Of a stretch of 64,000 bases of DNA, positions 1 to 64,000 are shown piece by piece. Numbering within the stretch: the stretch's first letter is position 1; the number at the start of each line of letters is the position of its first letter. Position numbers and translations under genes: made by a program. The stretch is from Methanobacteriota archaeon (GTDB lineage Archaea > Thermoplasmatota > E2 > DHVEG-1): NCBI GenBank assembly GCA_963769885.1, contig CAVYNH010000006.1, positions 64,001-128,000 on the forward strand, in the 5' to 3' direction. The notes beneath the pieces are model-generated. The model was given only the letters and a program-made list of their open reading frames with translations, searched no databases and was not told the origin of the DNA.

Positions 1-750
1 CCCCGCGCCATCATCACCGGCATGATGATCGTCATGGTCTTCTACCTCGCCACCAACTTCATCGTCTACAGCATCCTCCCCTGGCAGCAACTCGGCCACT
101 CCTCCACCCCGCTGATCACCGCCATCAGCATGACCATCATCGGAGGCGCCGGCGTGATCATCATGGGCATCGGCGCCCTCCTCTCCGTCTCCGGCTCTAA
201 CGAATCCGGCACCCTCGGCACCGCCCGCCTCAGCTACGCTATGGCCATCGACGGCCTCTTCCCCAAAATCTTCGCTAAAACCCACAAAAGATACAAGACG
301 CCGGTCGGCGCCCTTGTCATCCAAGCCATCCTCGCCTTCGCCCTCGCCACCCTCTCCACCCTCCCCAACCTGATTAGCTTCGCCGTCTTCAACCTCGCCG
401 TCGCCTTCCTCCTCACCTGCCTCGCCCTCATCGCCCTCCGCAAAACCACAACCCACCACCTCCGCGGCCAACACATCCTCCCCTACCTCGGTATCGCCAT
501 CTGCCTCTACCTCTTCTACAACACCACTCCCACCAACATCCTCATCGGCCTCGCCATCATCCTCGCCGGCATCCCCATCTACGCCTACTTCTCCCCCAAA
601 ACCGACATCCACCACCTCAAAGACCTCTTCGTCTCCGAAGAAGCCGTCTTCACCCGCAACCTCAGCCGCAAAGAACGCTTCCTCGCCAACTTCATCGACC
701 TCCTCCACCGCGCCTACCACAAACTCCACAAGACCAAAAAACCAGACTAA
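1..750 (+). CDS. APC-family amino acid permease (5'-truncated by window)
   Basis: Multiple TM helices; motif ARLSYAMAIDGLFPKIFAKTHKRYKTP typical of APC permeases; frame open from base 1. Confidence 0.9.
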   Translation, partial: PRAIITGMMIVMVFYLATNFIVYSILPWQQLGHSSTPLITAISMTIIGGAGVIIMGIGALLSVSGSNESGTLGTARLSYAMAIDGLFPKIFAKTHKRYKTPVGALVIQAILAFALATLSTLPNLISFAVFNLAVAFLLTCLALIALRKTTTHHLRGQHILPYLGIAICLYLFYNTTPTNILIGLAIILAGIPIYAYFSPKTDIHHLKDLFVSEEAVFTRNLSRKERFLANFIDLLHRAYHKLHKTKKPD

Positions 751-794
751 ACACAAACCCTATATCGCCAGATGTAATGACGTAACCCTGCACG

Positions 795-3353
<2,559 letters not shown>

Positions 3354-3376: not shown

Positions 3377-4567
3377 TTATCGGCTCATGGCTTTCTTGAA
3401 CATGGGTACGGCGATGGCGAGCATGATGATGCCGAAGCCAATGAGGATAGCGACCTCGAGCATCACGGCGTCGAGCCCGGCACCAAGCACCATGACTTTG
3501 CGCATCGCGGTTGTCGCATAGGTCAAAGGCAGGAAATGCGCGAAATCCTGCATGTACCAGGGCATCTGCTGCAGGGGGAAGAAGACGCCGGAGAGGAACA
3601 TCATGGGGAACATCAAGGTCATCATGACCATGGTGGCGGTTTCCTCTCTGTCTGTGAACGATGTGATCAGGATGCCGAGGCCGACGAAGCTGAAGACGGT
3701 CAGCAGGACGAGGAAGATGACGAGTAGGATGTTTCCTTCGATAACAACCCCGAAGAGGCCGATGGCAAGGAGTAGGATGATGAACCCCTGGATCATGCCA
3801 CGGATTGTCTGCGCCATGACCTTCCCTAAGATGATGGAGAGGCGGTTGATTGGGGCGACGAGCATCCCGTCTAGGGTGCCAATGTCTTTTTCGTAGGAGA
3901 TCGCATGGGGCAGCCCGGTCATCAGCGCCATCATAACGACCATGCAAATGATACCGGGGGCGACGAACTGGAAGTAGTTCGGCTCTCCGGGGACGATGCC
4001 TTTGAACTCTGGTTGATACGGGGTGATGATGGAGCCGGCGATGTTTGAGGAGACGTGGTAGGTGACGTTGAGGGTGTGGGCCGCAGTCTGCGCTCCCATG
4101 GCTGAGATGACCTGGGACATGACGCCTTCCATGGTTAAGGAAACCTGCGGGTTGGACTGGTCAATGACGATGATGATGTAGCCTTGTTTGTCGGTCATGA
4201 GGTTCTGGCTGAAGTTCTCGGGGATGATGATGCCACCGTTGATTTCGTTGTTCTGCAGTTTGGTCTTGATGTCGTCGTAGCCTTGAGCGTTTGAGAGCTT
4301 CATCATGCCGGTTTGGTTATTGATGGCCTCTAGTTGGGTGGTGAACATCGTTCCCATGGTTTGTCCGTTGAATCCCGTGTCTTGGTTGACGAGGGCTACC
4401 GGGGTGTCTTTGATGGAGTTGCCTGAGGGGAAGATGAACCCGACCATGACCATCATGAAGAGTGGCATGAGGACGAGCATGACGAGGCGGATTTTGCTGC
4501 GGCTGAACTCCGCGAGGTCTTTCCAGCAGATCCAGAAGCTGTGTTTGAGGATGCGTCGTGTTGCCAT
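3377..4567 (-). CDS. ABC-2 type exporter permease with large extracytoplasmic loop
   Basis: EKDIGTLDGMLVAP and FLSGVFFP...PLTYA motifs; directly downstream of ABC ATPase. Confidence 0.92.
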   Translation of the reverse strand: MATRRILKHSFWICWKDLAEFSRSKIRLVMLVLMPLFMMVMVGFIFPSGNSIKDTPVALVNQDTGFNGQTMGTMFTTQLEAINNQTGMMKLSNAQGYDDIKTKLQNNEINGGIIIPENFSQNLMTDKQGYIIIVIDQSNPQVSLTMEGVMSQVISAMGAQTAAHTLNVTYHVSSNIAGSIITPYQPEFKGIVPGEPNYFQFVAPGIICMVVMMALMTGLPHAISYEKDIGTLDGMLVAPINRLSIILGKVMAQTIRGMIQGFIILLLAIGLFGVVIEGNILLVIFLVLLTVFSFVGLGILITSFTDREETATMVMMTLMFPMMFLSGVFFPLQQMPWYMQDFAHFLPLTYATTAMRKVMVLGAGLDAVMLEVAILIGFGIIMLAIAVPMFKKAMSR

Positions 4568-4579
4568 AGTGATATCACC

Positions 4580-5770
4580 TTACCGTACTCGTGCGGCCCT
4601 CCGTCTTCGGCGGCCGTGGGGCCCGCCGGTGCTGTGGTTGCTTTCTGAGAGTTTATCTCGGACCTGTCTGCCGGTGAGGTGGAGGAAGACGTCTTCGAGG
4701 GTCGGTTCGATGTTGCGGACCAAGACGATCTTCGCGCCGTGCTGCCTGAGTAGGTTGATGATGGTGTCGAAGGCGTTGGGGCCGAGGACTTGTACTTTGA
4801 TGTGGGTCTCGTCTTCTTGCGTGACGGATTTGACGGCTGGTGAGATTTGGACCGCGGTGATCATCGGGGTGGTGAGATTCTGAATTTCGATCTCGAGGAC
4901 GGTGGTGTCTGTTCCGGAGACGAGTTTTTTGAGGCCGGCGGGGGTGTCGAGGGCGACGATGTTGCCTTTGTCGATGATTGCGAGTCGGTCGCAGAGCATG
5001 TCCGCTTCGGTCATCATGTGTGTGGTGAGGATGATGGTCGTGCCTTGTTCAGTGTTGATCTGGCGGATGAGACCGCGGATGTCGGAGGTGGATTGAGGGT
5101 CGAGTCCGAGGGTGGGTTCGTCAAGGAAGAGGATCTCGGGTTGGTTGACGAGGGCGCGGATGACGTTGATGCGTTGTTTCATGCCGGTGGAGAAGGTGTC
5201 GATCTTGGCGTCCGCCCATTTTTCCATGCGGACGAAGTTGAGGAGGGTGTTGATGCGTTTTTTGAGTTCGGGTTCTGGGATGTTGTAGAGTCTGCCGAAG
5301 AGGGCGAGGTTTTCTCTGGCGGTGAGGTCGTCGTACATAATCATTTTTTCGGAGACGAGGCCGATGTGTTGGCGGACTTTGCTGTCTTGGTTGACGATGT
5401 CGTAGCCGGCGACGGTGGCGGTGCCGGCGGTGGGTCTGCTGAGGGTGCACAGCATACGGATGATGGTGGATTTGCCTGCGCCGTTGGGGCCGAGGAGGCC
5501 GAAGATTTCTCCTTGTTTGACGGTGAAGGAGACGTCGTCGACGGCGGTGAAGTCGCCGAACATTTTTTTGAGGTGGGTGAGGGTGATGGCGGCGTCCCCG
5601 TGCTTGTGGTGTGCGTGGGTGGCCGTCTGTGAGAGGATGGCTTTGCCTCTGGTTTGGCAGGAGGGGCAGATGATGATGATGTGTTCGCCTGGGGTGCCTG
5701 TGACGGTTTCGACGGTTCCGCAGGTGGGGCATTTGAATTTCTTGGTGGTGGCTTGGATGGTGGTTGGCAT
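4580..5770 (-). CDS. ABC transporter ATP-binding protein (DrrA-like) with N-terminal Zn-ribbon
   Basis: Walker A GPNGAGKS, signature FSTGMKQR, Walker B ILFLDEPT; N-terminal CPTC...CPSC. Confidence 0.95.
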   Translation of the reverse strand: MPTTIQATTKKFKCPTCGTVETVTGTPGEHIIIICPSCQTRGKAILSQTATHAHHKHGDAAITLTHLKKMFGDFTAVDDVSFTVKQGEIFGLLGPNGAGKSTIIRMLCTLSRPTAGTATVAGYDIVNQDSKVRQHIGLVSEKMIMYDDLTARENLALFGRLYNIPEPELKKRINTLLNFVRMEKWADAKIDTFSTGMKQRINVIRALVNQPEILFLDEPTLGLDPQSTSDIRGLIRQINTEQGTTIILTTHMMTEADMLCDRLAIIDKGNIVALDTPAGLKKLVSGTDTTVLEIEIQNLTTPMITAVQISPAVKSVTQEDETHIKVQVLGPNAFDTIINLLRQHGAKIVLVRNIEPTLEDVFLHLTGRQVRDKLSESNHSTGGPHGRRRRRAARVR

Positions 5771-5777
5771 TGGGAGA

Positions 5778-6008
5778 TCACTTCTTGGTGATTTTGGCTT
5801 TGAGTTCGGTGATGTTGTCGCTCATGAAGTCGAGGTATTTGTCCATGGTCTCTTCGTTGAAGAGGAGGATGTTTTTGACGTGGGTGTTGCCGATGACGAT
5901 GAGGGTGTCGCCTTTTTTGATGTTGAGGTCTCGGCGCAGGTTGATGGGAAGCACGATCTGGCCGCGTTCGCCGACGGTTGTGCTGCCGTAGAATTTCATG
6001 GGTTTCAT
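5778..6008 (-). CDS. AbrB/MazE/SpoVT-family DNA-binding regulator
   Basis: VGERGQIVLPINLRRDLNIKKGD is the AbrB signature; start moved to ATG 6008, preceded by GGAGGG. Confidence 0.88.
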   Translation of the reverse strand: MKPMKFYGSTTVGERGQIVLPINLRRDLNIKKGDTLIVIGNTHVKNILLFNEETMDKYLDFMSDNITELKAKITKK

Positions 6009-6051
6009 ATGCGGTTCCCTCCGACTTTTGGGACCCGTAAGAAGGGTCCGG

Positions 6052-6088
6052 TATATATAGGTTTTCATACATTTCATACTTTTCATAC
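6052..6088. promoter_or_regulatory. TATA-like box plus three tandem TTTCATAC direct repeats (putative operator of divergent promoters)
   Basis: TATATATAG at 6052-6060; TTTCATAC at 6063, 6072 and 6081 (9-bp period) between divergent AbrB-ABC and ABC-arsM units. Confidence 0.6.
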
Positions 6089-6193
6089 GCTGAAGGCTAA
6101 TAAAGGGGATGTGGATATGTGGTCACTGCACACCCTCCCTTCTCCCGTGGGGACCGCACGTTCACACGGTGTGCGTGGTGGAGGAATCCAACC

Positions 6194-12487: not shown

Positions 12488-12554
12488 TCTTTTGAGGTTG
12501 CCGGTCGAATCTCCTAGTGGGCATTATCGTCTTGGAGGGCAACGCTCTCTTTAG

Positions 12555-12574: not shown

Positions 12575-12576
12575 AT

Positions 12577-50730: not shown

Positions 50731-50744
50731 ATGGGGGAAGAGGA

Positions 50745-51431: not shown

Positions 51432-51489
51432 TTTGTGATCGTTGGTTGTTGAAAATATTTATAAGGGTTTGTGTGCTGTTTGGGTGTGG

Positions 51490-51750
51490 ATGCGTGACAT
51501 TACCAAGGCGCAGCTGACGGTGGGTCTGCTGGCGCTGTTTACGACGCTGTGGGGGTTGGTGTTGGGGACCAGTAACCTGGTGACTGCCGTGGAGATGGTG
51601 GCGTTGCAGGCGGTGGTGCTGCTGGTGTTGAGTTATACGTTAATCGCGTTGTTGGAGTGGGTGGGGGTGTTTGATCTGCGGACGAACGCGGTGATGGTGT
51701 TGGTGGTGTTGGTGACGTTCCGGATCTTGTCGACGGTGCGGCTGCTGTAA
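51490..51750 (+). CDS. Small three-TM membrane protein
   Basis: Three hydrophobic segments; TTTATAA upstream. Confidence 0.65.
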   Translation: MRDITKAQLTVGLLALFTTLWGLVLGTSNLVTAVEMVALQAVVLLVLSYTLIALLEWVGVFDLRTNAVMVLVVLVTFRILSTVRLL

Positions 51751-51770
51751 AAAGAATTTCGGTTGGTGGG

Positions 51771-52694
51771 TTAGGTGTCGGTGGGTTTTTGCGGTTTTGT
51801 TTTGATGATGTGGATGGCGCCGGTGTAGTCGCCGGCTGGTGAGAGGAGGGGGGCGGCGAGGACTTCGAGGGTGTGGCCGTCGTTGGGGGCGGGGAAGGTC
51901 TCGCGTTGGGGTTGTTTGGTGGCTTTCATGGCGGGGCAGAGGCAGTGTTCTGGTGGTCGGGTGGTGTGGTGGATGAGTTGGTAGCATTTTTTGCCGATGC
52001 AGGTGTCGGGGGTGAGGTTGAGGTAGGCGGTGAAGGCGGTGTTGATGCGGGTGAGGTTTTGGTCGGTGTCGATGAGGAAGATGAGGTCGGTGAGGTGGTC
52101 GACGGTGGTCTGCCAGAGGGTGGTGGCGGTGTGGAGCTGGCGGTGGAGGTCGTCGTGGGTGGTGGTGTTAGAGAGGATGATGGCGACGCCGGGCTGGCCG
52201 TCGTCGAAGGTGGTGGGGAGGGCGCGGATCTGGAGGGTGTAGTGGCGGTTGTGGTGGGTGTAGTCGGTGCTCAGTTGGGTTTCTTTGCCGTTGAGTGCGG
52301 TTTGGGCGCTGGTGGCGAGGTTGGGGAGGTTGAGGATGGTGCTGGAGAGGGTGGTGATGGTGGTGCCGAGGAGCTCGGGTTTGGTGACGCCCAGGAGTGT
52401 GAGGAGGGTGGCGTTGGTTTGGATGATTCTGAGGTCTTTGTTGAGGAGGAGGATGCCGTCGGGGTTGACGTCGATGAGGTTGGCGAGGGGGAGGCGGGTG
52501 CTTGGGAAGTAGACCTTGGCGGGGCCGAAGGTGAGCATGTCGACGTGGCCGGTGATGAGGAGGATGTCGAGGTATTTGGCGATGCTGTTGCGGTTGGTTT
52601 TGGTTTCTCTGGCGATGTCGGTGACGGTCATGCCCTTGGGGTGGGCTTTCAGGATGGCGATGATGGCTTGGAGCTCGTCTTGGTAGTCGTCCAC
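51771..52694 (-). CDS. wHTH plus two PAS domains, one-component regulator
   Basis: GMTVTDIARETKTNRNSIAKYL HTH; two PAS units, the second with KCYQLIH...HCLCP. Confidence 0.85.
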   Translation of the reverse strand: MDDYQDELQAIIAILKAHPKGMTVTDIARETKTNRNSIAKYLDILLITGHVDMLTFGPAKVYFPSTRLPLANLIDVNPDGILLLNKDLRIIQTNATLLTLLGVTKPELLGTTITTLSSTILNLPNLATSAQTALNGKETQLSTDYTHHNRHYTLQIRALPTTFDDGQPGVAIILSNTTTHDDLHRQLHTATTLWQTTVDHLTDLIFLIDTDQNLTRINTAFTAYLNLTPDTCIGKKCYQLIHHTTRPPEHCLCPAMKATKQPQRETFPAPNDGHTLEVLAAPLLSPAGDYTGAIHIIKTKPQKPTDT

Positions 52695-53115
52695 GGGAGG
52701 GTAATATCAGGAGGAGAGTATTTATGCATTTCGTTTTGCGTGGCGGTTCTGCCATGCATAAGGCGAAGGCTTTATATAGTGTTGGTGATATGCAGGTATT
52801 GCCAAGCAGAAGTGCTAGGCAAAACGTAGTGGTGCGAGGGAACCTAATGACCATGACGAATTCCTCCGTCTCCGGATCTTCTGAACACCCTTGTGGGGGA
52901 GCGCATTCTCCTCGTCCGTCCTCTCCTCTCTTCCTCCACATCCCTCCCCACTCCCATCCTCTCTCCGGCTTTTTTCATCCTTCCTATACGAGGGGGTACC
53001 GCTCCCGGTAAAAAAACCGCATCCGCCTCCTTCTTTTCCCCGGTACCTCCCCCAACACCTCCAGAGGAAACCAGAATTATAAAAGAAAACCTTATAATAA
53101 TCAGGACGCCTATTA

Positions 53116-54393
53116 ATGTCTGATATGCGCCGCGCCCTTCTCCTCGTCTGCATCCTGACCCTGCTCCTCTCCTCCGCGCCCCTCGCCCGCCCGGTCCCCG
53201 CCCAGCCCATCGCCGGCTCAAAGCTCGCCGCAGTCCTCGACAAGATCACCCCCGCCCTCCTCACCGGGTACCTCACCAGCCTCGTCTCCTACGGCCCCCG
53301 CGTCAGCGGCACCTACGGCTGCCTGCTCGCCGGCGCCTACATCAATGATCAGTTCACCAGCATGGGCCTCGCCACCCGCTTCATTAACTACTCCGCATGG
53401 GGCAACAGGTACAACTTCCACCACGTCACCGACCGCGACGTCGAAGCCACCCTCCCCGGCACCAATACTGATGATCACAGCGTCCTCCTCTTCAACGCGC
53501 ACTTCGACAACGCCCACTTGTCGGTGGGCGCCAACGACGACGGCACGGGCGCCGCCGCGGTCCTCGCCGCCGCCTACGCCCTCAGCCACTTCACCTTCAA
53601 CCGCACCATCCGCTTCGTCGAATTCTCCGGCGAAGAACAAGGGCTCCTCGGCAGCCGCGCCTACCTCAAAGAGATCTACCCCCGCGGCGACGACGTCCTC
53701 CTCGACGTCGACGCGGACATGATCGGCCACGCAGTAACGACTGCGGGCGCACACGCCGCCCGCCTCAGCGTCACCGAGGACACCGGCTTCGCCACCACCA
53801 CCTTCCAGATCGTCAACGCCGGCTACATCGACTTCAATATCACCACCCATAACATCACCCGGATCACGAAGGACTTCGGCGGCAGTGACTACAGCGCCTT
53901 CGTCAACGACGGCTACGAGGCCGTCGCCTGCTGGGAGGCTGAGCACGACCCCAACATGCACACCCCGGCCGACAACCTCAGCAACGTCAACATCCCGTAC
54001 CTCGTCAACTACACCAAGCTGATCGCCGGCAGCCTCGCCCTCCTCGCCGACGCCGACCCCGTCCCTCCCCAGGTCCGCCTCGTCTCCCCAGCGCAGGGCA
54101 CCCTCAGCATCCACAGCCGGCTCATCAAAAACATCGACGAGCGGAAGACCATCTGCCTCAACGACGTCTGGCTCTGGGCCGAGGTCTTCCACCCCTCGCA
54201 ACCGATCCTGCGCGTTGATTTCTACATGGACAACAAGCTCGCCTATTCAGACACGACTCCTCCCTACAACTGGCATCTGGAGAGGCTCTCCATCCGAAAG
54301 CATACCATCACGGTGATCGCCTACGATTCCCAGGGTCGGACCACCTCAGACATCCGGGAGATCCACTACGTTAACCTCTTACGAAAAAAGTGA
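53116..54393 (+). CDS. Secreted M28 peptidase with C-terminal Ig-like domain
   Basis: AHFD, GANDDGTG, GEEQG, DMIG, SDY, MHTPAD. Confidence 0.92.
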   Translation: MSDMRRALLLVCILTLLLSSAPLARPVPAQPIAGSKLAAVLDKITPALLTGYLTSLVSYGPRVSGTYGCLLAGAYINDQFTSMGLATRFINYSAWGNRYNFHHVTDRDVEATLPGTNTDDHSVLLFNAHFDNAHLSVGANDDGTGAAAVLAAAYALSHFTFNRTIRFVEFSGEEQGLLGSRAYLKEIYPRGDDVLLDVDADMIGHAVTTAGAHAARLSVTEDTGFATTTFQIVNAGYIDFNITTHNITRITKDFGGSDYSAFVNDGYEAVACWEAEHDPNMHTPADNLSNVNIPYLVNYTKLIAGSLALLADADPVPPQVRLVSPAQGTLSIHSRLIKNIDERKTICLNDVWLWAEVFHPSQPILRVDFYMDNKLAYSDTTPPYNWHLERLSIRKHTITVIAYDSQGRTTSDIREIHYVNLLRKK

Positions 54394-54442
54394 GGCTTCC
54401 ACCGTAAAAAACAATCCCCCCTTATGTCCTATTTTTAAACCT

Positions 54443-55876
54443 CTAAGAAGAACCATACAGCCGCATTAGTATGTTCCTCCAGAGAGGGGGGCAGTCCGGA
54501 GACGGCCGGACAGTAAACTTCACAGAGAAGGAAGGCAGGATCATAATCTTGGTTGTATAATCAATATGGAGGTAATGGTTCCGACCGGAGATGATTATCC
54601 CCAGGCCCTCCGGGGGGAAAATCCAGTCCACGTCAGTGGACATATACTTCACGCGACTTGGGATAAACCGCATCGGGGTGTTCGTCCCTCTCCCGTCAGT
54701 TAAGGTGGTGATGTGGCCGTTCTGCTCCACGGTCGCGTTCGCCACCCCTGCCACGAGGAAGTTGCCGAGCTCAAACGGCCCGGTCTTGAAGTACATCTTT
54801 GTGATATTGGTAGTGCTCCGGAAGAAGACCTGGAGTTTCATCGAGCCTTTCCCTGCATCAATCTCGAAATCCATCGGCAGGTACGCATCGCGGTCGCCGA
54901 GATACTGATCGCGAAGGATCCGGGTAGTGATATCCCCAAACTCCCAGTAGCTCGTCCCGTCGGTTACAATCAAGAGAGCAGCGGACGGACCGTCCTTCAC
55001 GGTCAAGGCCGTCGCCCGAAAGAGGATCATGCTCCATCCGCACGGAAACCCGATCCAAATCCAGTCATAGCCGACGATACTGTCGGTACTTGAGTGATAA
55101 AAGGTCCAGTCGATGAGCCCGTTTTGCAGGTATTGCATGAAGATCCATTTCGACAGTTCGCAGTATAAGGTACCCGCCTTCACCGCATTCTGAAGACCAA
55201 GACCCCGGAAGAACGTGTCATAGAAATGGGCGTCGGCGAACTGGTGCTCCATGTACCCGATGCCGGTGACGTTCTCCGACTGGCCTTGGAACGTGAGCCT
55301 GCCGGCAACCTTCCCCAGCGGCATGAGCCAGTAATGGAAGGTCCCGCTCCCGCACGGGATCGTCCCGTTTACCGCTTCCTGGCCGATGTAGTGCGGCGGG
55401 GCGCTAGCATTGAAGTAGATAGACATGGTGATGTTATTGACGTCGTCGTTGATGAACACCGTATAGTATGGATAGAGGCCGCGGAACGTCGAGTTATAAT
55501 AGGAGAGGTTCACGCAGTTCTTCTCATGGTGGAAGGGACCGGGGTGCGGATCGGCGTGGAGGCAGTCGTAATAGCTACCGGTGTGGCGGTCCCAGCACTC
55601 GATCCGGATGTAGGAAAAGCCGTCGGTGCTGGACCAGTGGCCTGACGACCAGTTCATCTGATAAAAGAACATGATGCAGACATCCCACTGCCCGCCGTCC
55701 TCCAACGTGAGCGTGGTGTACAGCCACCACCATTCGATGCCGCAGGGGAAATGATCGCCCTCGTCCGCGGGCGTCTCACGCGGCTCCGTGATGGTTCCAG
55801 AGTCAGCGTGAATCCCCGGAAACAGAAGAAGGGACAGCAGCAGGAAACCGCAAAAGGCGGCGACAAATCGTTTCAT
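54443..55876 (-). CDS. Secreted lipocalin-like/AttH(CrtC)-like beta-barrel protein
   Basis: Signal peptide; DEGDH...EWWWL, VTGIGYMEHQF, YDWIWI pattern. Confidence 0.6.
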   Translation of the reverse strand: MKRFVAAFCGFLLLSLLLFPGIHADSGTITEPRETPADEGDHFPCGIEWWWLYTTLTLEDGGQWDVCIMFFYQMNWSSGHWSSTDGFSYIRIECWDRHTGSYYDCLHADPHPGPFHHEKNCVNLSYYNSTFRGLYPYYTVFINDDVNNITMSIYFNASAPPHYIGQEAVNGTIPCGSGTFHYWLMPLGKVAGRLTFQGQSENVTGIGYMEHQFADAHFYDTFFRGLGLQNAVKAGTLYCELSKWIFMQYLQNGLIDWTFYHSSTDSIVGYDWIWIGFPCGWSMILFRATALTVKDGPSAALLIVTDGTSYWEFGDITTRILRDQYLGDRDAYLPMDFEIDAGKGSMKLQVFFRSTTNITKMYFKTGPFELGNFLVAGVANATVEQNGHITTLTDGRGTNTPMRFIPSRVKYMSTDVDWIFPPEGLGIIISGRNHYLHIDYTTKIMILPSFSVKFTVRPSPDCPPLWRNILMRLYGSS

Positions 55877-56171: not shown

Positions 56172-56447
56172 TTAAGCGGTTGGATGTAGCCGCAGATCGC
56201 TGACCTTGCCTTGCATCTTTTTCAGAGCTATCGTGATCTTGTCTGCCATCCTTTGATGATCAACACCTATCGATGATTTTCTAGTGAAAAAATCAACATA
56301 AGGCAAGTTGACCTTACCCCATCTCTCTACACTTTCAGAAACAGTATCAAAACAATGACCGCATAACAGATGATCTTGCCCCATTGTCGGATGTCGGTAG
56401 CCTTCGATGATTCCCAGGTTCTTTCCACATTCTTCACATGCTTTCAT
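56172..56447 (-). CDS. Small Zn-finger protein
   Basis: CEEC...CGHC; GGAG upstream. Confidence 0.7.
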   Translation of the reverse strand: MKACEECGKNLGIIEGYRHPTMGQDHLLCGHCFDTVSESVERWGKVNLPYVDFFTRKSSIGVDHQRMADKITIALKKMQGKVSDLRLHPTA

Positions 56448-56504
56448 TTTCTTATCTCCAATATACTGTATAGGGGCTGAACGACATCAAATGGCTCACC
56501 AAAA

Positions 56505-56555
56505 AACTCGACAGAATAGTAATATAGTCAGAATAAAATATGCTTTTGTCGAGTT
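56505..56555. promoter_or_regulatory. 12-bp inverted repeat flanking an AT-rich core (putative operator)
   Basis: AACTCGACAGAA (56505-56516) and TTTTGTCGAGTT (56544-56555), one mismatch. Confidence 0.55.
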
Positions 56556-56558
56556 CGT

Positions 56559-57512
56559 ATGGAAAAGATAGATTTGAAAGATAGGAGAATACTATATGAG
56601 CTTGATGTAGATAGCAGGCAATCGTTTCGAAATATCGGCAGAAAGGTTGGTCTCTCCAAAGATGTGGTGGCCAGTAGAGTCAAAAAATTAAGAGACAGGG
56701 GAGTCATTCTCCGTTTTTTTGCCTACTACGACATCCTCCACTTAGGGTATAATTTTCTAAGATTTTACTTTAAGTTCCAATACGTCACCCCTGAAATTAA
56801 AAAAGAAATTATCAATCACTTCATGAATGATGATCATGTAAACAATCTGTTTTCAACTGAGGGTAGCTACGATTTAGGCGTTTTAATGATGGTGGAAAAC
56901 ATTTCTGATATCTATCCTCTCTGGAGAAAAACCCTCGAGAAATATGGTGATTATTTTTCAACGCAAGTCTTTTCAGCATACATGGGTGAATTAATCTACG
57001 GGCATGGGTTTTTGCTTGAAGGTATCGAAAAACCACAGAGGACTCCCTTACGAAAGAATTTGGGGAAAGTAAAGATTGATGCTCTTGATGTAGAGATATT
57101 AAAATTATTGTCGGTTGATTCAAGAATACCTACAGTTGAGATTGCGAAAAAACTCCAGTCAAATGTGACAACTATTAATTCAAGAATTAACAGACTTGTG
57201 AAGTCGAAAGTCATCCTTGGTTTTTCCGTCGAGCTTGATATGGATAAACTGGGGTATCAAACTTGGAAAGTGGATTTCTTTTTAAGTGAGTATACGAAAT
57301 TAAACCAAATTGTTACCTATTTAGAAAAAAATCCTCTGTTATACTGTGTCGATTATACCATAGGATATGCTGATTTGGAGATAGAAATCAATGTAAGAGA
57401 CAATAGTCAACTCCATGATATTATTGAAGATCTGCATGCAAAATTTCCGAAAATAATTCGGAACTATTCATTTTTCCGCGGTATAAAATTTTATAAATGG
57501 TATAGTTTATAA
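56559..57512 (+). CDS. Lrp/AsnC-family regulator with tandem duplicated HTH-RAM units (low GC)
   Basis: IDLKDRRILYEL..DSR and IDALDVEILKLL..DSR HTHs, each followed by a RAM-like domain. Confidence 0.88.
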   Translation: MEKIDLKDRRILYELDVDSRQSFRNIGRKVGLSKDVVASRVKKLRDRGVILRFFAYYDILHLGYNFLRFYFKFQYVTPEIKKEIINHFMNDDHVNNLFSTEGSYDLGVLMMVENISDIYPLWRKTLEKYGDYFSTQVFSAYMGELIYGHGFLLEGIEKPQRTPLRKNLGKVKIDALDVEILKLLSVDSRIPTVEIAKKLQSNVTTINSRINRLVKSKVILGFSVELDMDKLGYQTWKVDFFLSEYTKLNQIVTYLEKNPLLYCVDYTIGYADLEIEINVRDNSQLHDIIEDLHAKFPKIIRNYSFFRGIKFYKWYSL

Positions 57513-57777
57513 TATTAACAATATACTTGAAAACGAAAATGTGGTACGAGCACTGACACGGTTTTAGAACTACTGTTTGTGTGTCAGAATAGGGGATCCA
57601 CGGTGACTGTCCTATTGCACGTATTTCCGTATGTCGAGATCGATTGATATCCACATCAAACACCCTACGACCTCCAAGGATTCTCTATGAATTGACCCCA
57701 ACAAAGGATACATGAATTTTCTCCTTAGCTTTTCCACCCCACCTATTTTTAAAGGGACGTCTCGTTGACATACAACT

Positions 57778-59733
57778 ATGGTACGAGGACTCGCCGCCCT
57801 CGACGTCTACACCATCACCACCGAGCTCCAAAGCCTCCTCGGCTCCTACATCGAAAAGGTGTACCAGCTTGCCCCAGACACCCTTCTCCTCAAAACCAAG
57901 ACCCCCAAAGCCGGCGCGGACCAACTCTTCATCCGCAACCAAAACTTGCTCTGCCTCACCAGCCGCCGCTTCGACACCCCCGAGACACCCAGCGTCTTCG
58001 CCATGACCCTCCGCAAGTACCTCCAAGGCGGACGCATCACCCAGATCATCCAACACCAACTCGACCGGATCCTCATCCTCACCATCACCAAAGGCGACCA
58101 GCCCTACCGCCTCATCCTCGAACTCTTCACCCACGGCAACATCATCCTCACCACCCCAGACGACACCATCATCCGCCCCCTCCTCCAACAAACCTGGGCG
58201 AAACGCATCCTACGCAGCAACCAACCCTACCTCCCCCCACCACCCCAAGCCAACCCCCTCACCCTCACCCAAGAAGCATTCAACGAGATTCTCGCAAAAA
58301 GCACCAAGGACCTCGTCCGGACCCTCGCCATCACCGTCAACCTCAGCGGCCTCTACGCCGAAGAACTCTGCCACCGCGCCGGACTCGACAAAAACACAAA
58401 AATCCCAAGCCTCACACCAGAAGACCGCCAACGACTCTACGCCTGTCTCCAAGAACTTCTAAGGCCCTTCAAAGAAAAGACATTCACGCCAGTCCTCGTG
58501 AAAGAAAACGACGCTATCGTCGATGTCCTGCCGATCCCATTTGAAACCTACAAAGACAAGACCCAAGAACCCATCCCCGAGTTCACCCGCGGCCTCGACG
58601 CCTTCATCAACCAACCCAAAGAAGCCACCCCCGACCAACAAGCCCACACCGCCCTCCACGACCGCCTCACCCGCCAACTCCACCAACAACAACAAACTGC
58701 GTCAACCTTCGAAACCCAGATTGCCATCAAAAAACAAGAAGGAGACCTCATCTACCAACACTACCAACCACTTGAGTTTCTCCTTAAACAAATAGCTGAA
58801 GACATGCGACTCAAGGACAAAACCGCCGCTCTTAATCAAATCCGCAAAAACCCACTCGTCAAATCTTTCATCCCTGAAGCCGACAACCTAAAAGTCACCC
58901 TAAAAGACCAAGCAGAAACCGAACACACCCTCAGCCTCGACTTCCGCAAAACCGCCGCCGCCAACGCCCAGGCCGCCTACCAAGACAGCAAAAAACTCCA
59001 AGAAAAACTCAAAGGCGCAAAAGACGCCATCAAAAAAACCAAACACGACCTCCACACCCTCACCGAAGAAACCACCACCGAAAAACCCAAGAAACCAGTC
59101 CAACAAAAATGGTGGTTCCAACAATACCGCTGGTTCATCACCACCGACGGCAACATCGTCGTCGGCGGCCGCGACGCCCGCACCAACGAACAAATCGTCA
59201 AAAAATACCTCACCGAAGGCGACCGCTACGTCCACGCCGACATCCACGGCGCCCCCAGCGTCATCGTCAAACACACCGACATCCACGGCAACACCATCCC
59301 CATCACCGACCAAACACTAGAACAAGCCTGCATCTTCGCCACCTCCTACAGCAAAGCCTGGAGCCAATACGCCACCGCCCAGGCCTACTGGGTCACCCCC
59401 GAACAAGTCAGCAAAACACCAGAAACCGGCGAATACGTCCCCAAAGGCGCCTTCATCATCCGCGGCAAACGCACCTACCACCAATGCATCCTCCAACTCG
59501 CCATCGGCCTCGCCACCCTCGACGACCACCCCGTCCTCATGGCCGGCCCCCTCGACGCCATCAAAACACACACCAAAAACTACCTCGTCATCACCCCCGG
59601 CACCACCAAAAGACCCACCCTCGCCAAAAAAATCGCAGCCATCCTCCACGTCCCCGTCGATGACGCCGACAGACTCCTCCCACCCGGCAACGCCACCATC
59701 ACCACCCCGCCCAAGGGAGGCAAACCCAAGTGA
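57778..59733 (+). CDS. rqcH: Ribosome quality control NFACT protein (Rqc2/RqcH homolog)
   Basis: FAMTLRKYL, LDRIL, ELF..GNIIL, YAEELC..AG, coiled coil, GGRDA..NE, VHADIHGAP, GAFIIRG. Confidence 0.93.
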   Translation: MVRGLAALDVYTITTELQSLLGSYIEKVYQLAPDTLLLKTKTPKAGADQLFIRNQNLLCLTSRRFDTPETPSVFAMTLRKYLQGGRITQIIQHQLDRILILTITKGDQPYRLILELFTHGNIILTTPDDTIIRPLLQQTWAKRILRSNQPYLPPPPQANPLTLTQEAFNEILAKSTKDLVRTLAITVNLSGLYAEELCHRAGLDKNTKIPSLTPEDRQRLYACLQELLRPFKEKTFTPVLVKENDAIVDVLPIPFETYKDKTQEPIPEFTRGLDAFINQPKEATPDQQAHTALHDRLTRQLHQQQQTASTFETQIAIKKQEGDLIYQHYQPLEFLLKQIAEDMRLKDKTAALNQIRKNPLVKSFIPEADNLKVTLKDQAETEHTLSLDFRKTAAANAQAAYQDSKKLQEKLKGAKDAIKKTKHDLHTLTEETTTEKPKKPVQQKWWFQQYRWFITTDGNIVVGGRDARTNEQIVKKYLTEGDRYVHADIHGAPSVIVKHTDIHGNTIPITDQTLEQACIFATSYSKAWSQYATAQAYWVTPEQVSKTPETGEYVPKGAFIIRGKRTYHQCILQLAIGLATLDDHPVLMAGPLDAIKTHTKNYLVITPGTTKRPTLAKKIAAILHVPVDDADRLLPPGNATITTPPKGGKPK

Positions 59734-60788
59734 AGATCATCCACCAGAACCCCAAAACCGGCGAGATCAAACTCGTCGCCGAAAACCTCGACGACATCTG
59801 GCACCTCTACAACATCATCCAAGAAGGCGACCTCGTCAGAGCCGTCACCTTCCGAACCGCAGACGACCACAAAGACGACCGCATCCGCGCCGTTAAAACC
59901 GAAAAAAAACGCATGAAACTCGGCATCAAAGTCGAAAAAGTCGCCTTCCACGAATTCAGCAACCGCCTCCGCATCCAAGGAACCATCATCGAAGGAATCC
60001 AAGACCTCGGACAACACCACACCTTCAACGTCGACACCGATATCCTCGAACCCATCACCCTCATCAAAGAACACTGGCGGCCCCACGACCTCCAACGCCT
60101 CCAAGAAGCCGTCAACCAACGCACCGTACCCGTCCTCCTCTTCGTCAGTCTCGACGAGGACACCGCCACCATCGCGGTCCTGCGCCAAAGCGGCGTCCAA
60201 CAGGTCGCCGACATCGACGCCCACCGCAGCGGCAAGATGTACGAAACCAAAGAAATCAGTTCCGAATACTACGACGACATCCTCGGAATCATCAAAACCA
60301 CCAAGGCCCCCGGCGCCCCCCTCGTCGTCATCGGCTCCGGCTTCGCCCGCGAACACCTTATCGACTTCATCAAAAACAAAGACCCCGGCCTCCTCGACTC
60401 CTACGTCAGCTACGCCACCGGCAACGCCGGCATGAACGGCGTCCACGAGGCCATCAAAGCCGGCATCGTCGACAAGCTCACCAAAGAAAACCGCGTCTCC
60501 AAAGAAACCCAGGCAGTCGAACGCCTCCTCGAAGAAGTCAAAAAAGACGGCCTCGCCACCTACGGCCCCAAGGAAGTCGAGAGCGCACTTGAGCAAGGCG
60601 CGGTCGAGACCCTGTTGATTTCGGACGTCTGCATCCGCAGCCGCCAGGGGGAACACCTCCTCGACCTCGCCAGAAAAACAAACAGCGGCTTCCTCATCAT
60701 CAACTCCCTACATGAAGCCGGGAAAAAATTCGAAAGCCTCGGCGGCGTCGCCGCCATCCTGCGCTACAAGCCCACGGCTCAGACGTAG
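59730..60788 (+). CDS. pelA: mRNA surveillance/ribosome rescue protein pelota
   Basis: ENLDDIWHLYNII..GD, NRLRIQG, GQHHTF, GAVETLLI, LGGVAAILRY; GTGA overlap. Confidence 0.95.
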   Translation: MKIIHQNPKTGEIKLVAENLDDIWHLYNIIQEGDLVRAVTFRTADDHKDDRIRAVKTEKKRMKLGIKVEKVAFHEFSNRLRIQGTIIEGIQDLGQHHTFNVDTDILEPITLIKEHWRPHDLQRLQEAVNQRTVPVLLFVSLDEDTATIAVLRQSGVQQVADIDAHRSGKMYETKEISSEYYDDILGIIKTTKAPGAPLVVIGSGFAREHLIDFIKNKDPGLLDSYVSYATGNAGMNGVHEAIKAGIVDKLTKENRVSKETQAVERLLEEVKKDGLATYGPKEVESALEQGAVETLLISDVCIRSRQGEHLLDLARKTNSGFLIINSLHEAGKKFESLGGVAAILRYKPTAQT

Positions 60789-61534
60789 CGGCCGCAGCCC
60801 GTGCCGATAATCATCGACATGTACGGCGGCGTCCAGTTGCTCGTCTCCGACGGGAAGCCAACAGGCAGGTCATCAAGGCCCGTCCCCGTCATGTTCTCCT
60901 TGAACGTAAAGCTGTAATACGAGTAGTTGACGTCCAGGGTGAAGTGGTTGCCCTTGTCGCGGAACCGAAGCGGGAACCGCTCCCCGATCTTGACGGTCAC
61001 GGTGACGTTGATGGGCTTGTTCGTCCAGCTGGTACTCTTGAACATCGCCTCCAGCCTCTTCTCGGCGTCCTGCGTGTTGTTCGCCTGGATCGTCTTCGGG
61101 GGCATCAACTTCGTCGAGACATTGATAGAAAAGTCCCCCGCCTTCGTCCGCGGCGCGCTCTTGTCAGAAAAGGACGTCGTCTTGTTGTCCGGCGTCTTAA
61201 TCGAAAGCGTCAGGGTGTCGAGGCCGAAGCGGCGTAGCAAGGCCTTGTCGTCGACCCACTGAAGCCTAAACGAAACTGACTTCAGGTTCGCCTGATTAAT
61301 CGTGACGGGTGTCGAAACTCCGGTCCCCTTCGGCGCGTTCCCCTCAATCTGTGACAGGGAGGCGTTCACGGTATGCCACGTGACCGAGTACGTCATCCAC
61401 GTGGATTGCTCTTGACTCGGGGTGGACGGGGGCGTGACCGAGGGCGAATACAGCGCGACCCCGGCGCCCGCAATGAGGAGAATGAAGACACCGACAATGA
61501 TGATGATTTTGTCGTTGCGGCGAAGGGTAATCAT
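60779..61534 (-). CDS. Hypothetical membrane-anchored beta-sandwich protein
   Basis: N-terminal TM after basic residues; GGTGA upstream; overlaps the pelota stop by 10 bp. Confidence 0.7.
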   Translation of the reverse strand: MITLRRNDKIIIIVGVFILLIAGAGVALYSPSVTPPSTPSQEQSTWMTYSVTWHTVNASLSQIEGNAPKGTGVSTPVTINQANLKSVSFRLQWVDDKALLRRFGLDTLTLSIKTPDNKTTSFSDKSAPRTKAGDFSINVSTKLMPPKTIQANNTQDAEKRLEAMFKSTSWTNKPINVTVTVKIGERFPLRFRDKGNHFTLDVNYSYYSFTFKENMTGTGLDDLPVGFPSETSNWTPPYMSMIIGTGCGRYV

Positions 61535-61675: not shown

Positions 61676-62692
61676 CTACGGGAAGGCGGTGACAATCGGG
61701 ATTGGACTCTTACAGATGGCACAGCGGCCATCGACAAGCCCGGTGATCCGGGCTAAAAACCCATGCCGCTCCACTAGAAGGGCATGGCAAGACGGACAGT
61801 AGGTGTTCTCGTAATCCCCGTGCGGGACGTTGCCCACGTAGACGTACTGCAGGCCTGCCTCGACGGCAAGGGACCGCGCCTGCAGCAGGGTTCCCGCGGG
61901 GGTGGGCGCCACCGCGGTCATCTTATGGTCCGGGTGGAACCGGGAGAAATGGACTGGGGTCTGCAGGGAGAGCCGGTCGGCGACCCACCGGCAAAACGCG
62001 CTGAGCTCCTCCCGGGCGTCGTTGTAGCCGGGGATGATGAGGTACGTGATCTCGAGGTGGACGCCGAGGCGGTGGGCGAGCTCGCAGGCTTCGAGGACCG
62101 GGGCGAGGCGGGCCTTGCAGACCCGGTGGTAGAAGGACTCGGTGAAGGCCTTGACGTCGACGTTCATCGCATCGAGGAGGGGGGCGAGCTCCTTGAGGGG
62201 CTCGGGGTTGATGAAGCCGTTGGTGACGGAGACGGTGGCGAGGCGGGCGGCTTTGGCGAGCCTGGCGCTGTCCCGGACGTACTCGTGCCAGATGGTGGGT
62301 TCGTTGTAGGTCCAGGCGATGCCCGCGCAGCCACTTTCCTGTGCGGCGGCGACTGCATCCTGCGGGGAGAGTTCTTGGAGAGGATAGGATTCAGGGGTGG
62401 CGGTGGCGATGTGGTAGTTCTGGCAGTGCAGGCAGCTCAGGGTGCAACCGACGGACCCGAGGGAGAGGACGGTGGAGCCGGGGAGGAAGTGGTAGAGTGG
62501 TTTTTTTTCGATGGGGTCTGCGGCGATGCCGGAGCAGAGGCCATAGATGAGGGAGACGAGGCTGCCGCCTTGGTTTTCCCGGACACCGCAGCGGCCGCGT
62601 TTGCCGGGAGGGATGCGGCAGTGGTGGGGGCAGAGTTGGCACTGAACCGAGTTGTGGTCTTGTGAGGTCCAGAAGGCTGCGGGGGTGCTCAT
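61676..62692 (-). CDS. amrS: AmmeMemoRadiSam system radical SAM enzyme
   Basis: CQLCPHHC..G.CGVR, DPIEKKPLYHF, GCTLSCLHCQN, TYNEP, HFSRFHP, YVGNV..T.CP.C. Confidence 0.92.
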   Translation of the reverse strand: MSTPAAFWTSQDHNSVQCQLCPHHCRIPPGKRGRCGVRENQGGSLVSLIYGLCSGIAADPIEKKPLYHFLPGSTVLSLGSVGCTLSCLHCQNYHIATATPESYPLQELSPQDAVAAAQESGCAGIAWTYNEPTIWHEYVRDSARLAKAARLATVSVTNGFINPEPLKELAPLLDAMNVDVKAFTESFYHRVCKARLAPVLEACELAHRLGVHLEITYLIIPGYNDAREELSAFCRWVADRLSLQTPVHFSRFHPDHKMTAVAPTPAGTLLQARSLAVEAGLQYVYVGNVPHGDYENTYCPSCHALLVERHGFLARITGLVDGRCAICKSPIPIVTAFP

Positions 62693-62719
62693 CCTAGTGG
62701 GTTCGATGGTGGTTGGGTT

Positions 62720-64000
62720 TTATTTACTTTGGCCTAGGACGAGGCCGGGGTTGTTGAGGAGGCGGCTGGGGTAACGGTCGTTGATCTGGGGGCGCATGCC
62801 TTTGTAGGCGGCGAGGTCTTTGTCGGTACGGAGCAGGTATTTGGCGTAGTAGAAGGCTTCTTCGACGCTAACTTTGCCGTCTTTGAAGAGGCGGGAGTGG
62901 GTGGGTCGGCCGAGGTTGAGGGGGCCGGGACGGTAGCCGTCGGCGGTTCCTTGGAGGCCTTGGAACCAGAGGAGGGTGAAGAGGGGTCCTTGGGTGGTGC
63001 TGGCGTAGCCGATGTCGAATTTGCTGGCGCCGGTGAGGATGATGCGTCCGTTTTCGGGGATGCCGGAGCGCATGAAGATGCTGGTGGGGAGGCTGGCGAC
63101 GGTGCGGTCGGCGAAGCCGCCGGCGTAGCAGGCGTCGACGATGATGGTGGTGCGGTGGCTGTTGAGGGGTTTGAGGAGTTGGCCGAGGTCTTTGTCGGTG
63201 AGGAGGCTATCCCAGAGGTAGAGGGCGCTGCTCTGCAGGATCTTGCCGCCGTTGCGTTGGTTGGCGTTGCCGTAGCCGTGGTTGAAGAACCAGAGGAAGA
63301 CTTCGCTGTCTTTGAATTGGTTGGATTCGTTGATGACTTGGGTGAGGGTCGCGACGACGTTGTCTTTGGTGGCGCCGCCGTAGGTGATGGCGTAGTCGTG
63401 GGGGCGTTCTTGGAGGGTCATAAGGCGTTGTCCGAGGCCGTTGTCGGTGCGGATCCAGCCGTCGTCGAAGAGGATGATGGTGTGGTTGGTGTCGTAGCCG
63501 AGGGTGTTGATGAAGTAGGCGGCCATCTGTTCGGAGAGGAGGAGGCCGCCGTTGCCGAGTTTGCTTTGGTTGTCGGCGGGGAAGTTGCCGGTGGCGATGA
63601 AGACGGCCCAGCGGTGGCTGCCGGTGGTCATGGCGCGTTCGTTGTCGACGGTGATGGTGATGGTCTGGGTCTTGGAGTAGGATTTGCCGTCGCTGGCGCG
63701 GACGCTGATGGTGACGGCGCCGTCTGGGCCTTGGTTGGTGTTCCAGTCGTAGCTCCAGAGGGTGGTGCCTTCGGCGGTGGCCCAGGCTTTGTCGCCTATC
63801 TTGACTTGGATGCTAGTAAGTTCGTTGTCGCCGTCTTTGTCGTGGGCGGTGCCGCTGATCATGACGAGGCGGCTGAGGGTGGTTTCGTCGGAGGGGTAGG
63901 TAAGGGTGACGGTGGGTGGGGTGTTGATGAGGTGGAGGTTGGTGGTGAGGACGCCGGAGTACATGGTGAGGATAACGACGACGGCGATGACTGCGACGGC
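62720..64000 (-). CDS. Membrane-anchored caspase-like (C14/C13-type) peptidase with N-terminal Ig-like domain (5'-truncated)
   Basis: Frame open to the window end through a hydrophobic stretch; FNHG (His), VDACYAGGF (Cys), DGKVSVEEAF. Confidence 0.82.
   Translation of the reverse strand, partial: AVAVIAVVVILTMYSGVLTTNLHLINTPPTVTLTYPSDETTLSRLVMISGTAHDKDGDNELTSIQVKIGDKAWATAEGTTLWSYDWNTNQGPDGAVTISVRASDGKSYSKTQTITITVDNERAMTTGSHRWAVFIATGNFPADNQSKLGNGGLLLSEQMAAYFINTLGYDTNHTIILFDDGWIRTDNGLGQRLMTLQERPHDYAITYGGATKDNVVATLTQVINESNQFKDSEVFLWFFNHGYGNANQRNGGKILQSSALYLWDSLLTDKDLGQLLKPLNSHRTTIIVDACYAGGFADRTVASLPTSIFMRSGIPENGRIILTGASKFDIGYASTTQGPLFTLLWFQGLQGTADGYRPGPLNLGRPTHSRLFKDGKVSVEEAFYYAKYLLRTDKDLAAYKGMRPQINDRYPSRLLNNPGLVLGQSK

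Follow-up and report, generated by a model that had tools for sequence, protein, structure and literature searches.

A near-saturated sawtooth of C/A-rich and G/T-rich DNA in an archaeal genome, with sharp drops at gene starts

What kind of process can make one strand of an archaeal chromosome alternate, every few kilobases, between DNA very rich in C and A and DNA very rich in G and T? The question is raised by a stretch of 64,000 nucleotides, here called the window (positions 64001-128000 of contig C6), from G000, a 2.09-Mb draft metagenome-assembled genome of 7 contigs which has two Orc1/Cdc6 genes (of a family matching only archaea among our control genomes), a thermosome gene and the gene for the mismatch endonuclease NucS. 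Skews in strand composition are, as a rule, weak, and serve as records of past replication or transcription. An earlier note, made from the letters of the window, had described alternating blocks of extreme skew that ignore gene direction and flip inside genes, and had proposed a local, polar, strand-asymmetric mutational process as their cause. We confirm the observation, extend it to the genome and to related species, and weigh three readings of the mechanism at the level of DNA: transcription-coupled asymmetry, many replication starts, and one-sided resynthesis.

We expressed the skew as keto skew, (G+T-A-C)/N. Its standard deviation over 1-kb windows of the stretch is 0.225, compared with a mean of 0.031 (maximum 0.040) in 200 shuffles. 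All 14 blocks named in the earlier note carry the polarity that it gave them, with keto skews of -0.19 to -0.42 in the C/A-rich and +0.26 to +0.39 in the G/T-rich blocks. GC and TA skew have the same sign in 14 of 14, and the absolute GC skew is at least 0.27 in all, with an absolute TA skew of only 0.08-0.13 in three of the C/A-rich blocks. In 1-kb windows GC skew spans -0.50 to +0.51 and AT skew moves in the opposite sense. Genome-wide, the 5th to 95th percentile range of GC skew is -0.40 to +0.39, and GC and AT skew are correlated with r = -0.78, that is +0.78 with TA skew.

The skew is maximal at third and four-fold degenerate codon positions. Four-fold sites of the strongly C/A-type genes (n = 307) are 0.83 C, 0.085 A, 0.05 G and 0.035 T, and those of the strongly G/T-type genes (n = 49) are 0.075 C, 0.03 A, 0.77 G and 0.13 T. 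The second class is thus the complement of the first, which identifies the skew as a property of the DNA strand and not of the message. Such mirror-image polarity is found in about 17% of genes, conserved ones among them, with G making up 0.64-0.77 of their four-fold sites. Non-coding DNA is affected as well. Ahead of strongly C/A-type genes whose spacer measures 400 bp or more, GC skew weakens with distance from the gene, from -0.36 (-100 to -50 bp) through -0.25 (-225 bp) to -0.13 (-400 bp), and the DNA upstream of G/T-type genes is G/T-rich over the whole span examined. As had been proposed, the skew also reshapes proteins, a pyroglutamyl peptidase (Pcp) of the window consisting of 22.8% Val, 13.6% Gly and 0% Lys and a C10 peptidase of 12.2% Thr, 10.9% Pro and 7.4% His. 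The mirror-image genes and the skewed non-coding DNA exclude codon or protein selection as the cause. Taken together, the amino/keto axis, the third-position maximum, the mirror polarities, the non-coding extent and the roughly one gene in six of 'wrong' polarity fit a local, polar, strand-asymmetric process acting on DNA better than such selection. To this extent the proposed mutational process is supported; none of the three mechanisms offered for it (dispersed initiation sites, directional repair or translocation, persistent single-stranded exposure) is singled out by these data.

Relating the skew to genes requires a sound gene map, and long open reading frames (ORFs) stay open on both strands of skewed DNA, so real genes were fixed first by Pfam. 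In these the codon position of maximal skew is 3, as opposed to 1 or 2 in the shadow ORFs on the other strand, a rule that is independent of the sign of the skew. A three-class codon model seeded with this rule gave margins above 35 to 19 of 19 Pfam-supported genes and below 5 to 8 of 8 shadow ORFs, and yielded a map of 1730 genes covering 86% of the genome. The shadow ORFs opposite skewed genes, such as 16732-18177 (-) and 51873-52829 (+), reach 481 amino acids (opposite the C10 gene), match no Pfam family and have their maximal skew at codon position 1; they are likely to give rise to false gene calls in genomes of this kind and, together with the position-dependent codon usage, could mislead composition-based gene finding and the detection of horizontal gene transfer. 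An Rfam search of the window matched zero RNA families.

Set against this map, the contention that the blocks ignore gene direction proves overstated. Using four-fold skew in 600-bp windows, on which our genome-wide gene-strand and jump analyses rest, gene strand explains a share of the skew (R2 = 0.25) and there are sharp boundaries at gene ends. Windows lying on a pure gene strand have a C/A-rich coding strand (beyond 0.3) in 51-52% of cases and are weakly skewed in 36-38%. Highly expressed genes are of the C/A type, including those for RNA polymerase subunits (-0.53 to -0.91), EF-2 (-0.60) and the thermosome (-0.66). What stands of the contention is the opposite polarity of the remaining 11-12% of coding windows, and gene strand, with only 25% of the variance, does not explain the skew away.

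The skew has the shape of a sawtooth, with a gradual climb and an abrupt fall. Jumps between adjacent 600-bp windows comprise 78 drops and 15 rises at an absolute size above 1.0, and 34 drops and 3 rises above 1.2, an asymmetry that is independent of the strand read. We called 122 strong drops genome-wide, termed P sites, which have a median spacing of ~12 kb, together with 67 strong rises. When refined, 48% of the P sites are intergenic (intergenic DNA being 14% of the genome) and, of those inside genes, 76% are no more than 300 bp from the 5' end (median 78 bp); in all, gene 5' ends account for 88% of the sharp drops. Sharp rises are found in ~70% of cases in convergent spacers or up to 300 bp from a 3' end, and 15 fall well inside genes. 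The skew carries on across junctions within operons (r = 0.86), and usually also across co-directional spacers of 120-300 bp (r = 0.61). From the first to the last third of genes of at least 300 amino acids, 109 rise by more than 0.5 and 16 fall, with a mean rise of +0.14, and gene 3' ends are on average less C-biased rather than G-biased.

In the window the pattern is made up of the following features, where values by thirds are four-fold skews of the coding strand.

1-2700, + strand: C/A-rich block (keto skew -0.34) with the 3' part of an amino-acid permease gene (1-750; third-position skew -0.81) and a P-type ATPase gene (795-3353; third-position skew -0.68), both Pfam-supported.
4300-6000, - strand genes: G/T-rich on + (keto skew +0.32), being the C/A-rich coding strand of two ABC-transporter genes (Pfam).
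5770-6119: sharp drop (P site) at a divergent junction, four-fold jump -0.89 near 6000.
9699-11798, - strand: gene for a CarboxypepD_reg/Big_7 protein (Pfam) with an internal reversal, thirds -0.36/+0.16/+0.45.
15182-16534, - strand: hydrolase gene (Pfam), thirds +0.66/+0.40/-0.03, its 5' half having the polarity of the neighbouring C10 gene.
16837-18465, + strand: C10 peptidase gene (Pfam), extremely C/A-rich, thirds -0.88/-0.89/-0.30.
21722-24571, - strand: long gene with an internal reversal, thirds -0.58/+0.18/+0.52, and a sharp rise called near 23400.
24667-24850: sharp drop (P site) at a divergent junction, four-fold jump -1.10 at 24650.
27448-28425, + strand: transglutaminase-like gene (Pfam) of 'wrong' polarity, strongest 5', thirds +0.77/+0.45/+0.23.
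41606-41919: sharp drop (P site) between co-directional genes, four-fold jump -1.39 at 41650.
42000-52700: single ramp of 10.7 kb, with + strand keto skew going from -0.40 to +0.52.
47955-49370, + strand: second of two C25 genes, with an internal reversal, thirds -0.33/-0.08/+0.44.
49420-50730, + strand: M28 peptidase gene (Pfam), G/T-rich coding strand, thirds +0.43/+0.83/+0.79, k4 +0.67.
50745-51431, + strand: Pcp/C15 pyroglutamyl peptidase gene (Pfam), G/T-rich coding strand, thirds +0.67/+0.93/+0.89, k4 +0.83.
Third + strand gene of the cluster 49420-51750: small ORF, G/T-rich coding strand, k4 +0.90.
51771-52694, - strand: PAS-domain gene (Pfam), C/A-rich coding strand, k4 -0.94.
52694-53116: strongest drop of the window, in a divergent intergenic region, four-fold jump -1.70, switch at ~52845.
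57778-60788, + strand: C/A-rich block (keto skew -0.42) of an RqcH-like gene and the next gene, k4 -0.86 and -0.82.
62000-64000, - strand genes: G/T-rich on + (keto skew +0.31), being the C/A-rich coding strand of these genes.
~12400-15100, 19200-20000, 33000-34850, 37600-39300 and 56300-57600: five low-GC (0.33-0.49) stretches that are unskewed.

The exceptions to gene direction are real genes, since Pcp, M28, the transglutaminase-like gene and the hydrolase gene all have Pfam support. The divergent genes at 16534(-)/16837(+) are both C/A-rich on +, as had been noted, with coding-strand skews of +0.66 in the 5' third of the hydrolase and -0.88 in that of C10, and the facing genes over 50745-52694 are both G/T-rich on + (Pcp on + and the PAS gene on -, with the k4 values listed). 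Likewise, the reported reversal of skew inside single ORFs is seen in 9699-11798, 21722-24571 and 47955-49370, each running from a C/A-rich 5' part to a G/T-rich 3' part. The positions of the switches are also informative. That near 16 kb falls inside the hydrolase gene and not between the hydrolase and C10 promoters, the C/A-rich tract beginning ~700 bp upstream of the C10 start codon (keto skew -0.56 at 16801-17200); the switch at ~52845 sits ~200 bp upstream of the TATA-like box of the + gene; and the block 57778-60788 opens with a drop (jump -1.03 at 57650) at the edge of a low-GC island. Within the ramp of 42000-52700, skew crosses zero at 48.7-48.8 kb (best step 48690), ~3 kb before the convergent junction at 51.76 kb (51760).

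Several of these loci carry features of their own. The C10 gene is absent at the syntenic place (2158-2317) in L050, a metagenome locus 75-89% identical to the window and its closest metagenome relative there, where the flanking genes are ~160 bp apart; it is present in a ~95% identical strain (P0009, 91% identical), and the difference is either a gain in this lineage or a loss in L050. The two C25 (gingipain-type) paralogues, at 43198-45090 and 47504-49370, lie 4.4 kb apart, and contigs from sequencing run X2 (another study, depth ~30, with a strain ~95% identical to ours) jump between them, with joints that skip 4300-4500 bases. The start of the second copy is ambiguous, there being an ORF in another frame at 47504-47842 and a divergent 97-base X2 segment at 47792-47891. 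The low-GC stretch at 56300-57600 holds an ORF of 317 amino acids (56559-57512) and has a depth of 19-51x in runs X4 and X5, compared with <6x in the rest of the region; this raised depth indicates that the stretch also occurs outside this genome, and it is probably a mobile or widely shared element.

Position relative to P sites has an effect beyond that of gene strand. Genes pointing away from a P site have a skew of -0.59 that fades to -0.3, and genes pointing toward one have -0.37 to -0.17 on the outgoing strand within 2 kb and +0.3 beyond 5 kb, although the first 0.8 kb around the P sites is conditioned by the way in which these sites were defined. Between two divergent junctions, the zero-crossing regresses on the convergent point with a slope of 0.48, not 1, and in about half of the asymmetric intervals it lies 1-6 kb inside the longer gene cluster, the interval 43.2-52.7 kb of the window being one case. 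Two divergent junctions of the window have their switch 0.5-0.7 kb into one of the genes instead of in the interval that separates the promoters. Where a 3' end is strongly skewed, the last 600 bp of the facing gene have the same strand polarity in ~60% of cases. Oligo-T runs (at least 5) after the stop codon were considered as barriers and rejected, polarity crossing convergent junctions about as often where they are present as where they are absent (51% vs 61%, p = 0.33). Gene 3' ends just upstream of a co-directional tRNA gene stand at +0.10, as opposed to a general baseline of ~-0.2, and the DNA downstream of tRNA genes showed no skew. Skew also varies along co-directional clusters: it alternates between -0.91 and +0.42 in one of ribosomal-protein genes, and strengthens from -0.53 to -0.93 over the length of the RNA polymerase operon.

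The polarity of individual genes is conserved between species. Comparing G000 with its congener G001 by coding-strand four-fold skew gave r = 0.74 and 0 sign reversals among 276 orthologous pairs (over 442 kb of G001), with 16 G/T-type genes common to both, at a distance at which four-fold transitions are ~90% saturated. M28, Pcp and the small ORF are also of inverse polarity in G001 (k4 +0.41, +0.61 and +0.76) and in G015 (+0.54, +0.41 and +0.35), which belongs to another genus with ~45% amino-acid identity; the C/A polarity of the facing PAS gene recurs in G015 too. Other genes differ in that genome, such as one for an M14 peptidase (-0.81, -0.36, +0.01). Given that orthologue polarity is kept, the skew appears to be an actively maintained equilibrium tied to local architecture, and the lack of any reversal among the 276 orthologues points to a state at equilibrium as opposed to a transient one. 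Consistent with this, amino-acid changes between the ~95% identical strains, polarised with G001, comprise 31 from keto to amino and 33 from amino to keto, a balance in which no net flux is visible. Pooled differences between the X2 strain and the window amount to 484 transitions and 267 transversions.

Few of the relatives sampled have the trait. In 20-kb samples from 24 genomes, keto-type skew occurs only in G000, G001, G014 and G015, which represent three genera, with a mean absolute keto skew of 0.10-0.20 and GC and TA skew correlated at r = +0.36 to +0.76. For the most part, the remaining 20 have a lower GC content (0.28-0.45) and the ordinary purine-type pattern (negative r in most). Among 59 metagenome loci around one window gene, a handful have keto-type skew. 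High GC is no precondition, since G014 and G015 are skewed at only 44% GC. A one-protein tree (of a fused MGMT-EndoV protein, 12 taxa), built to see whether the trait arose once, gave no resolved branching.

The closest published phenomenon is that of GRINS (Nivina et al. 2021, PMC8256042), which show intense, positively correlated GC and TA skews with a third-position maximum and a mechanism described as unknown. The two are alike in the way a single strand turns abruptly, within 1 kb, from G+T-rich to C+A-rich or back, and in the amino acids affected (Gly/Val/Cys/Trp vs Pro/Thr/His/Gln), and the window has the skews that define GRINS (mean absolute GC and TA skews above 0.15, positively correlated), though with the lower TA skews of three C/A blocks given above. 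GRINS are, however, defined as duplicated regions (>80% identity, >500 bp) in repetitive bacterial genes and have been linked to gene conversion (PMC8256042). We therefore do not class the window among them: blastn against the genome found 0 of its bases in duplicates of at least 500 bp and 80% identity and 318 bases in repeats of at least 150 bp. The skew here, in contrast to GRINS, covers an archaeal genome from end to end and has its anchors at gene starts. Vertebrate mitochondrial DNA also has an A+C-rich and a G+T-rich strand, with a graded skew attributed to single-stranded time. Our case resembles it in that the A+C-rich strand holds most sense sequences and the skew is graded by position, but in mitochondria there is one domain per genome, the skew comes chiefly from C->T and A->G deamination, and 83% C is not reached. 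Ordinary prokaryotic origin-to-terminus skew was also considered and rejected, given the 122 drops genome-wide and, in 40-kb bins of the 785-kb contig C6, no long-range trend or switch at Orc1/Cdc6 (~260 kb) after averaging gene strand. A limited literature search found no description of such a pattern in archaea or Thermoprofundales-type genomes.

The explanation that we tentatively put forward, as a possibility that falls short of being probable, is that the skew is the equilibrium footprint of a lineage-specific, strand-asymmetric substitution bias at the DNA level, produced by one-sided resynthesis under a mismatch repair that consists of NucS only. Such a bias would strip G and T from the strand running 5' to 3' away from certain gene starts, with mostly C as the replacement, and would fade over ~2-4 kb from the anchor. 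A fading bias of this sort would leave a ramp from C/A-rich to G/T-rich DNA between two anchors, followed by a sharp drop at the next. Its source may be one-sided DNA resynthesis, repeatedly launched at gene 5' ends and moving away from them, for which repair synthesis on an exposed non-template strand, the filling of gaps left by resection of breaks near promoters, and locally primed leading-strand synthesis are candidates. NucS/EndoMS, apparently the sole mismatch repair here, cleaves G/T, G/G and T/T mismatches and hardly touches A/C, C/C or A/A (PMC4838380, PMC6159521). Were it to act as a filter on the new strand, only a misinserted A or C would survive, which would give the observed axis and sign, as the surviving changes (T>C, G>A, G>C and T>A) would all be from keto to amino. 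NucS is present in 4 of the 4 skewed genomes, and MutS was found in 0 of 30 genomes of the order, G000 included. In G000, which is more skewed than G001, C has been gained mainly from G (C/G 575 vs G/C 162), which calls for transversions along the amino/keto axis, as tolerance of C/C mismatches would allow. Composition, shape, anchor positions, conservation between species and the NucS and MutS results are observations; the one-sidedness of the resynthesis, its start at the anchors and the filtering role of NucS are what we infer. One-sided resynthesis would be the common denominator of the transcription and replication-start readings discussed below, and this is the form in which we prefer to state the matter.

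A number of observations weigh against this explanation. NucS also occurs in at least 12 relatives with ordinary purine-type skew, so the filter alone cannot explain why only some lineages are skewed, and EndoV, UDG, MGMT and two Orc1/Cdc6 genes occur in skewed and unskewed genomes alike (31 genomes). The anchors appear to be unmarked: the oriented motifs that the earlier note suggested seeking at switch points did not emerge, there being no enrichment among 6- to 8-mers within 120 bp on either side of the 122 drops relative to 575 other intergenic regions (best p = 2e-4 before correction), and no ORB-like motif was found there either. Finally, the siting of most sharp rises at gene 3' ends and the lack of skew downstream of tRNA genes would both be more natural if transcription units set the limits of the process.

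Some of the genes named here have notable arrangements. The MGMT-like domain and endonuclease V are fused in one ORF of G000 (C4:163426-164301), and the fusion is found in 12 of 12 aligned sequences (family f1 and G019 of f2), in all of which the catalytic Cys of the MGMT-like domain, within a P-C-[FY]-K motif, is kept; the open frame measures 430 amino acids in G000, 356 in G001 and 304-334 in the others. NucS adjoins an Orc1/Cdc6 gene in G000 (C6:259613-261630) and likewise in G001, G014 and G018, and a sharp skew drop lies just upstream of this G000 gene, at ~261.7 kb. The second Orc1/Cdc6 paralogue of G000 (C7:394390-394650) has an open frame of 243 amino acids compared with ~400 in all relatives, and may be truncated.

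A purely transcription-coupled asymmetry of mutation or repair, which we consider somewhat unlikely as the whole explanation, would have the RNA-like strand lose G and T, with the exceptions due to antisense, divergent or read-through transcription whose net direction changes gradually. Much of the geometry speaks for it, including the share of skew explained by gene strand, the excess of C/A-rich over opposite coding windows, drops at gene 5' ends and rises at 3' ends, operon junctions without a reset, and the lack of skew past tRNA genes, where transcription stops. Archaea reportedly have bidirectional promoters, as Warman et al. are said to have described in 2021. The pattern is also qualitatively that of unicellular fungi, in which the coding strand is C-biased 5', G-biased 3' and intermediate between, with an effect that extends into promoters and touches four-fold sites and amino-acid usage (McLean and Tirosh 2011, PMC3315797). 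Our genes match this in the predominance of rises over falls along their length and in their skewed upstream DNA, though with 3' ends that are less C-biased rather than G-biased; the fungal effect is, however, weak and confined to single genes, whereas here silent sites are near saturation (C 0.83), domains of ~5-12 kb span several genes, and TA skew moves with GC skew. The harder facts for transcription alone are the reach of the skew, to 400-700 bp ahead of start codons and into divergent neighbours, whose 5' half it covers, the polarity that crosses ~60% of convergent junctions regardless of an oligo-T run, the swing within one co-directional ribosomal-protein cluster, and the inverse polarity of Pcp and M28 kept across genera. 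These conserved inverse-polarity genes and the internal flips fit annotated transcription units poorly, and unannotated antisense, divergent or read-through transcription would be required for every exception. The sign is also opposite to that of transcription asymmetry in bacteria and mammals, and we know of no precedent for the amplitude (~0.9 skew at silent sites).

It is unlikely that the drops are many fixed replication start sites, for instance recombination- or R-loop-dependent origins at promoters, with A+C-rich leading strands and ramps that reflect a gradual change of fork polarity. The sawtooth, with its sharp jumps of one sign and gradual returns, is what such origins would produce, and it likens our profile to the skews of yeasts and to human N-domains, in which jumps are likewise of predominantly one sign. 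The median spacing of the strong drops, genes that point away from them in the manner of replication-transcription co-orientation, and the lack of a chromosome-scale switch at the C6 Orc1/Cdc6 locus, as expected if forks never travel far, would all fit. The sign agrees with that of yeasts, whose leading strand is A+C-rich (PMC3459929). Unlike the yeast and N-domain skews, however, the amplitude here is tens of times larger, the spacing is ~10 kb, and jumps coincide with gene 5' ends and many of the returns with 3' ends. The sign is opposite to that of human N-domains and bacterial skews. Fork-merger zones would not be tied to gene 3' ends, as ~70% of sharp rises are; the effect of place extends only ~2-4 kb, however far away the next drop is; the drops lack an ORB-like or other motif, and relatives with the same two Orc1/Cdc6 genes lack the skew. 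To our knowledge, an origin spacing of ~10 kb has no counterpart in any prokaryote and a silent-site skew near 0.9 is far above any replication skew. A bolder version, to which we give no more credence, is that the drops are real DNA-synthesis start sites and that the chromosome is copied or re-copied from well over 100 fixed promoter-proximal sites, primed by recombination or R-loops, in this archaeon and a few related genera. If true, natural prokaryotes with kilobase-scale replicons would have their first example here, and with NucS as the only mismatch repair each pass would enrich A+C on the new strand.

Selection on nucleic-acid properties, whether for A/C-rich unstructured mRNAs or for the avoidance of R-loops or G-quadruplexes on the non-template strand, is very improbable: the C/A-rich coding strand of most genes, highly expressed ones included, and the persistence of the pattern over long evolutionary times would suit it, but it is largely refuted by the mirror-image composition of ~17% of genes, and polarity flips within genes, upstream non-coding DNA is skewed, and most relatives with the same gene set have no skew.

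That the pattern is an artefact or a mosaic, made by mis-assembly, by inversions not yet equilibrated or by patches from donors of other composition, may seem invited by a draft metagenome assembly and by low-GC unskewed islands that show foreign DNA to be present, but it is refuted for practical purposes by independent Logan contigs that bridge the 52.7 kb switch, by the same profile in a collinear congener, by its presence in four genomes of three genera and by orthologues without a reversal. Contigs of run X2 cover 41839-48337, 50264-55865 and 57736-61000, the second of these segments lying on a single contig of 6723 bp that spans the switch, and G001 is collinear with 42000-54383 across both the zero-crossing and the switch, with the same ramp and drop. 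Switch points at assembly joins or inversion breakpoints, possibilities that the earlier note had raised against itself, are thus not borne out at these sites.

The skew described here, with 83% C at silent sites, is near saturation; it changes sign about once in 5-12 kb, alters the make-up of proteins and is held across species. The process that writes it dominates the sequence evolution of this lineage, and its starting points and reach can be read from the genome. The skew represents, on the scale of a whole genome, a natural case of the unexplained 'intense skews' that were first reported for bacterial GRINS and, if filtering by NucS is involved, would provide a testable link between non-canonical mismatch repair and genome composition.

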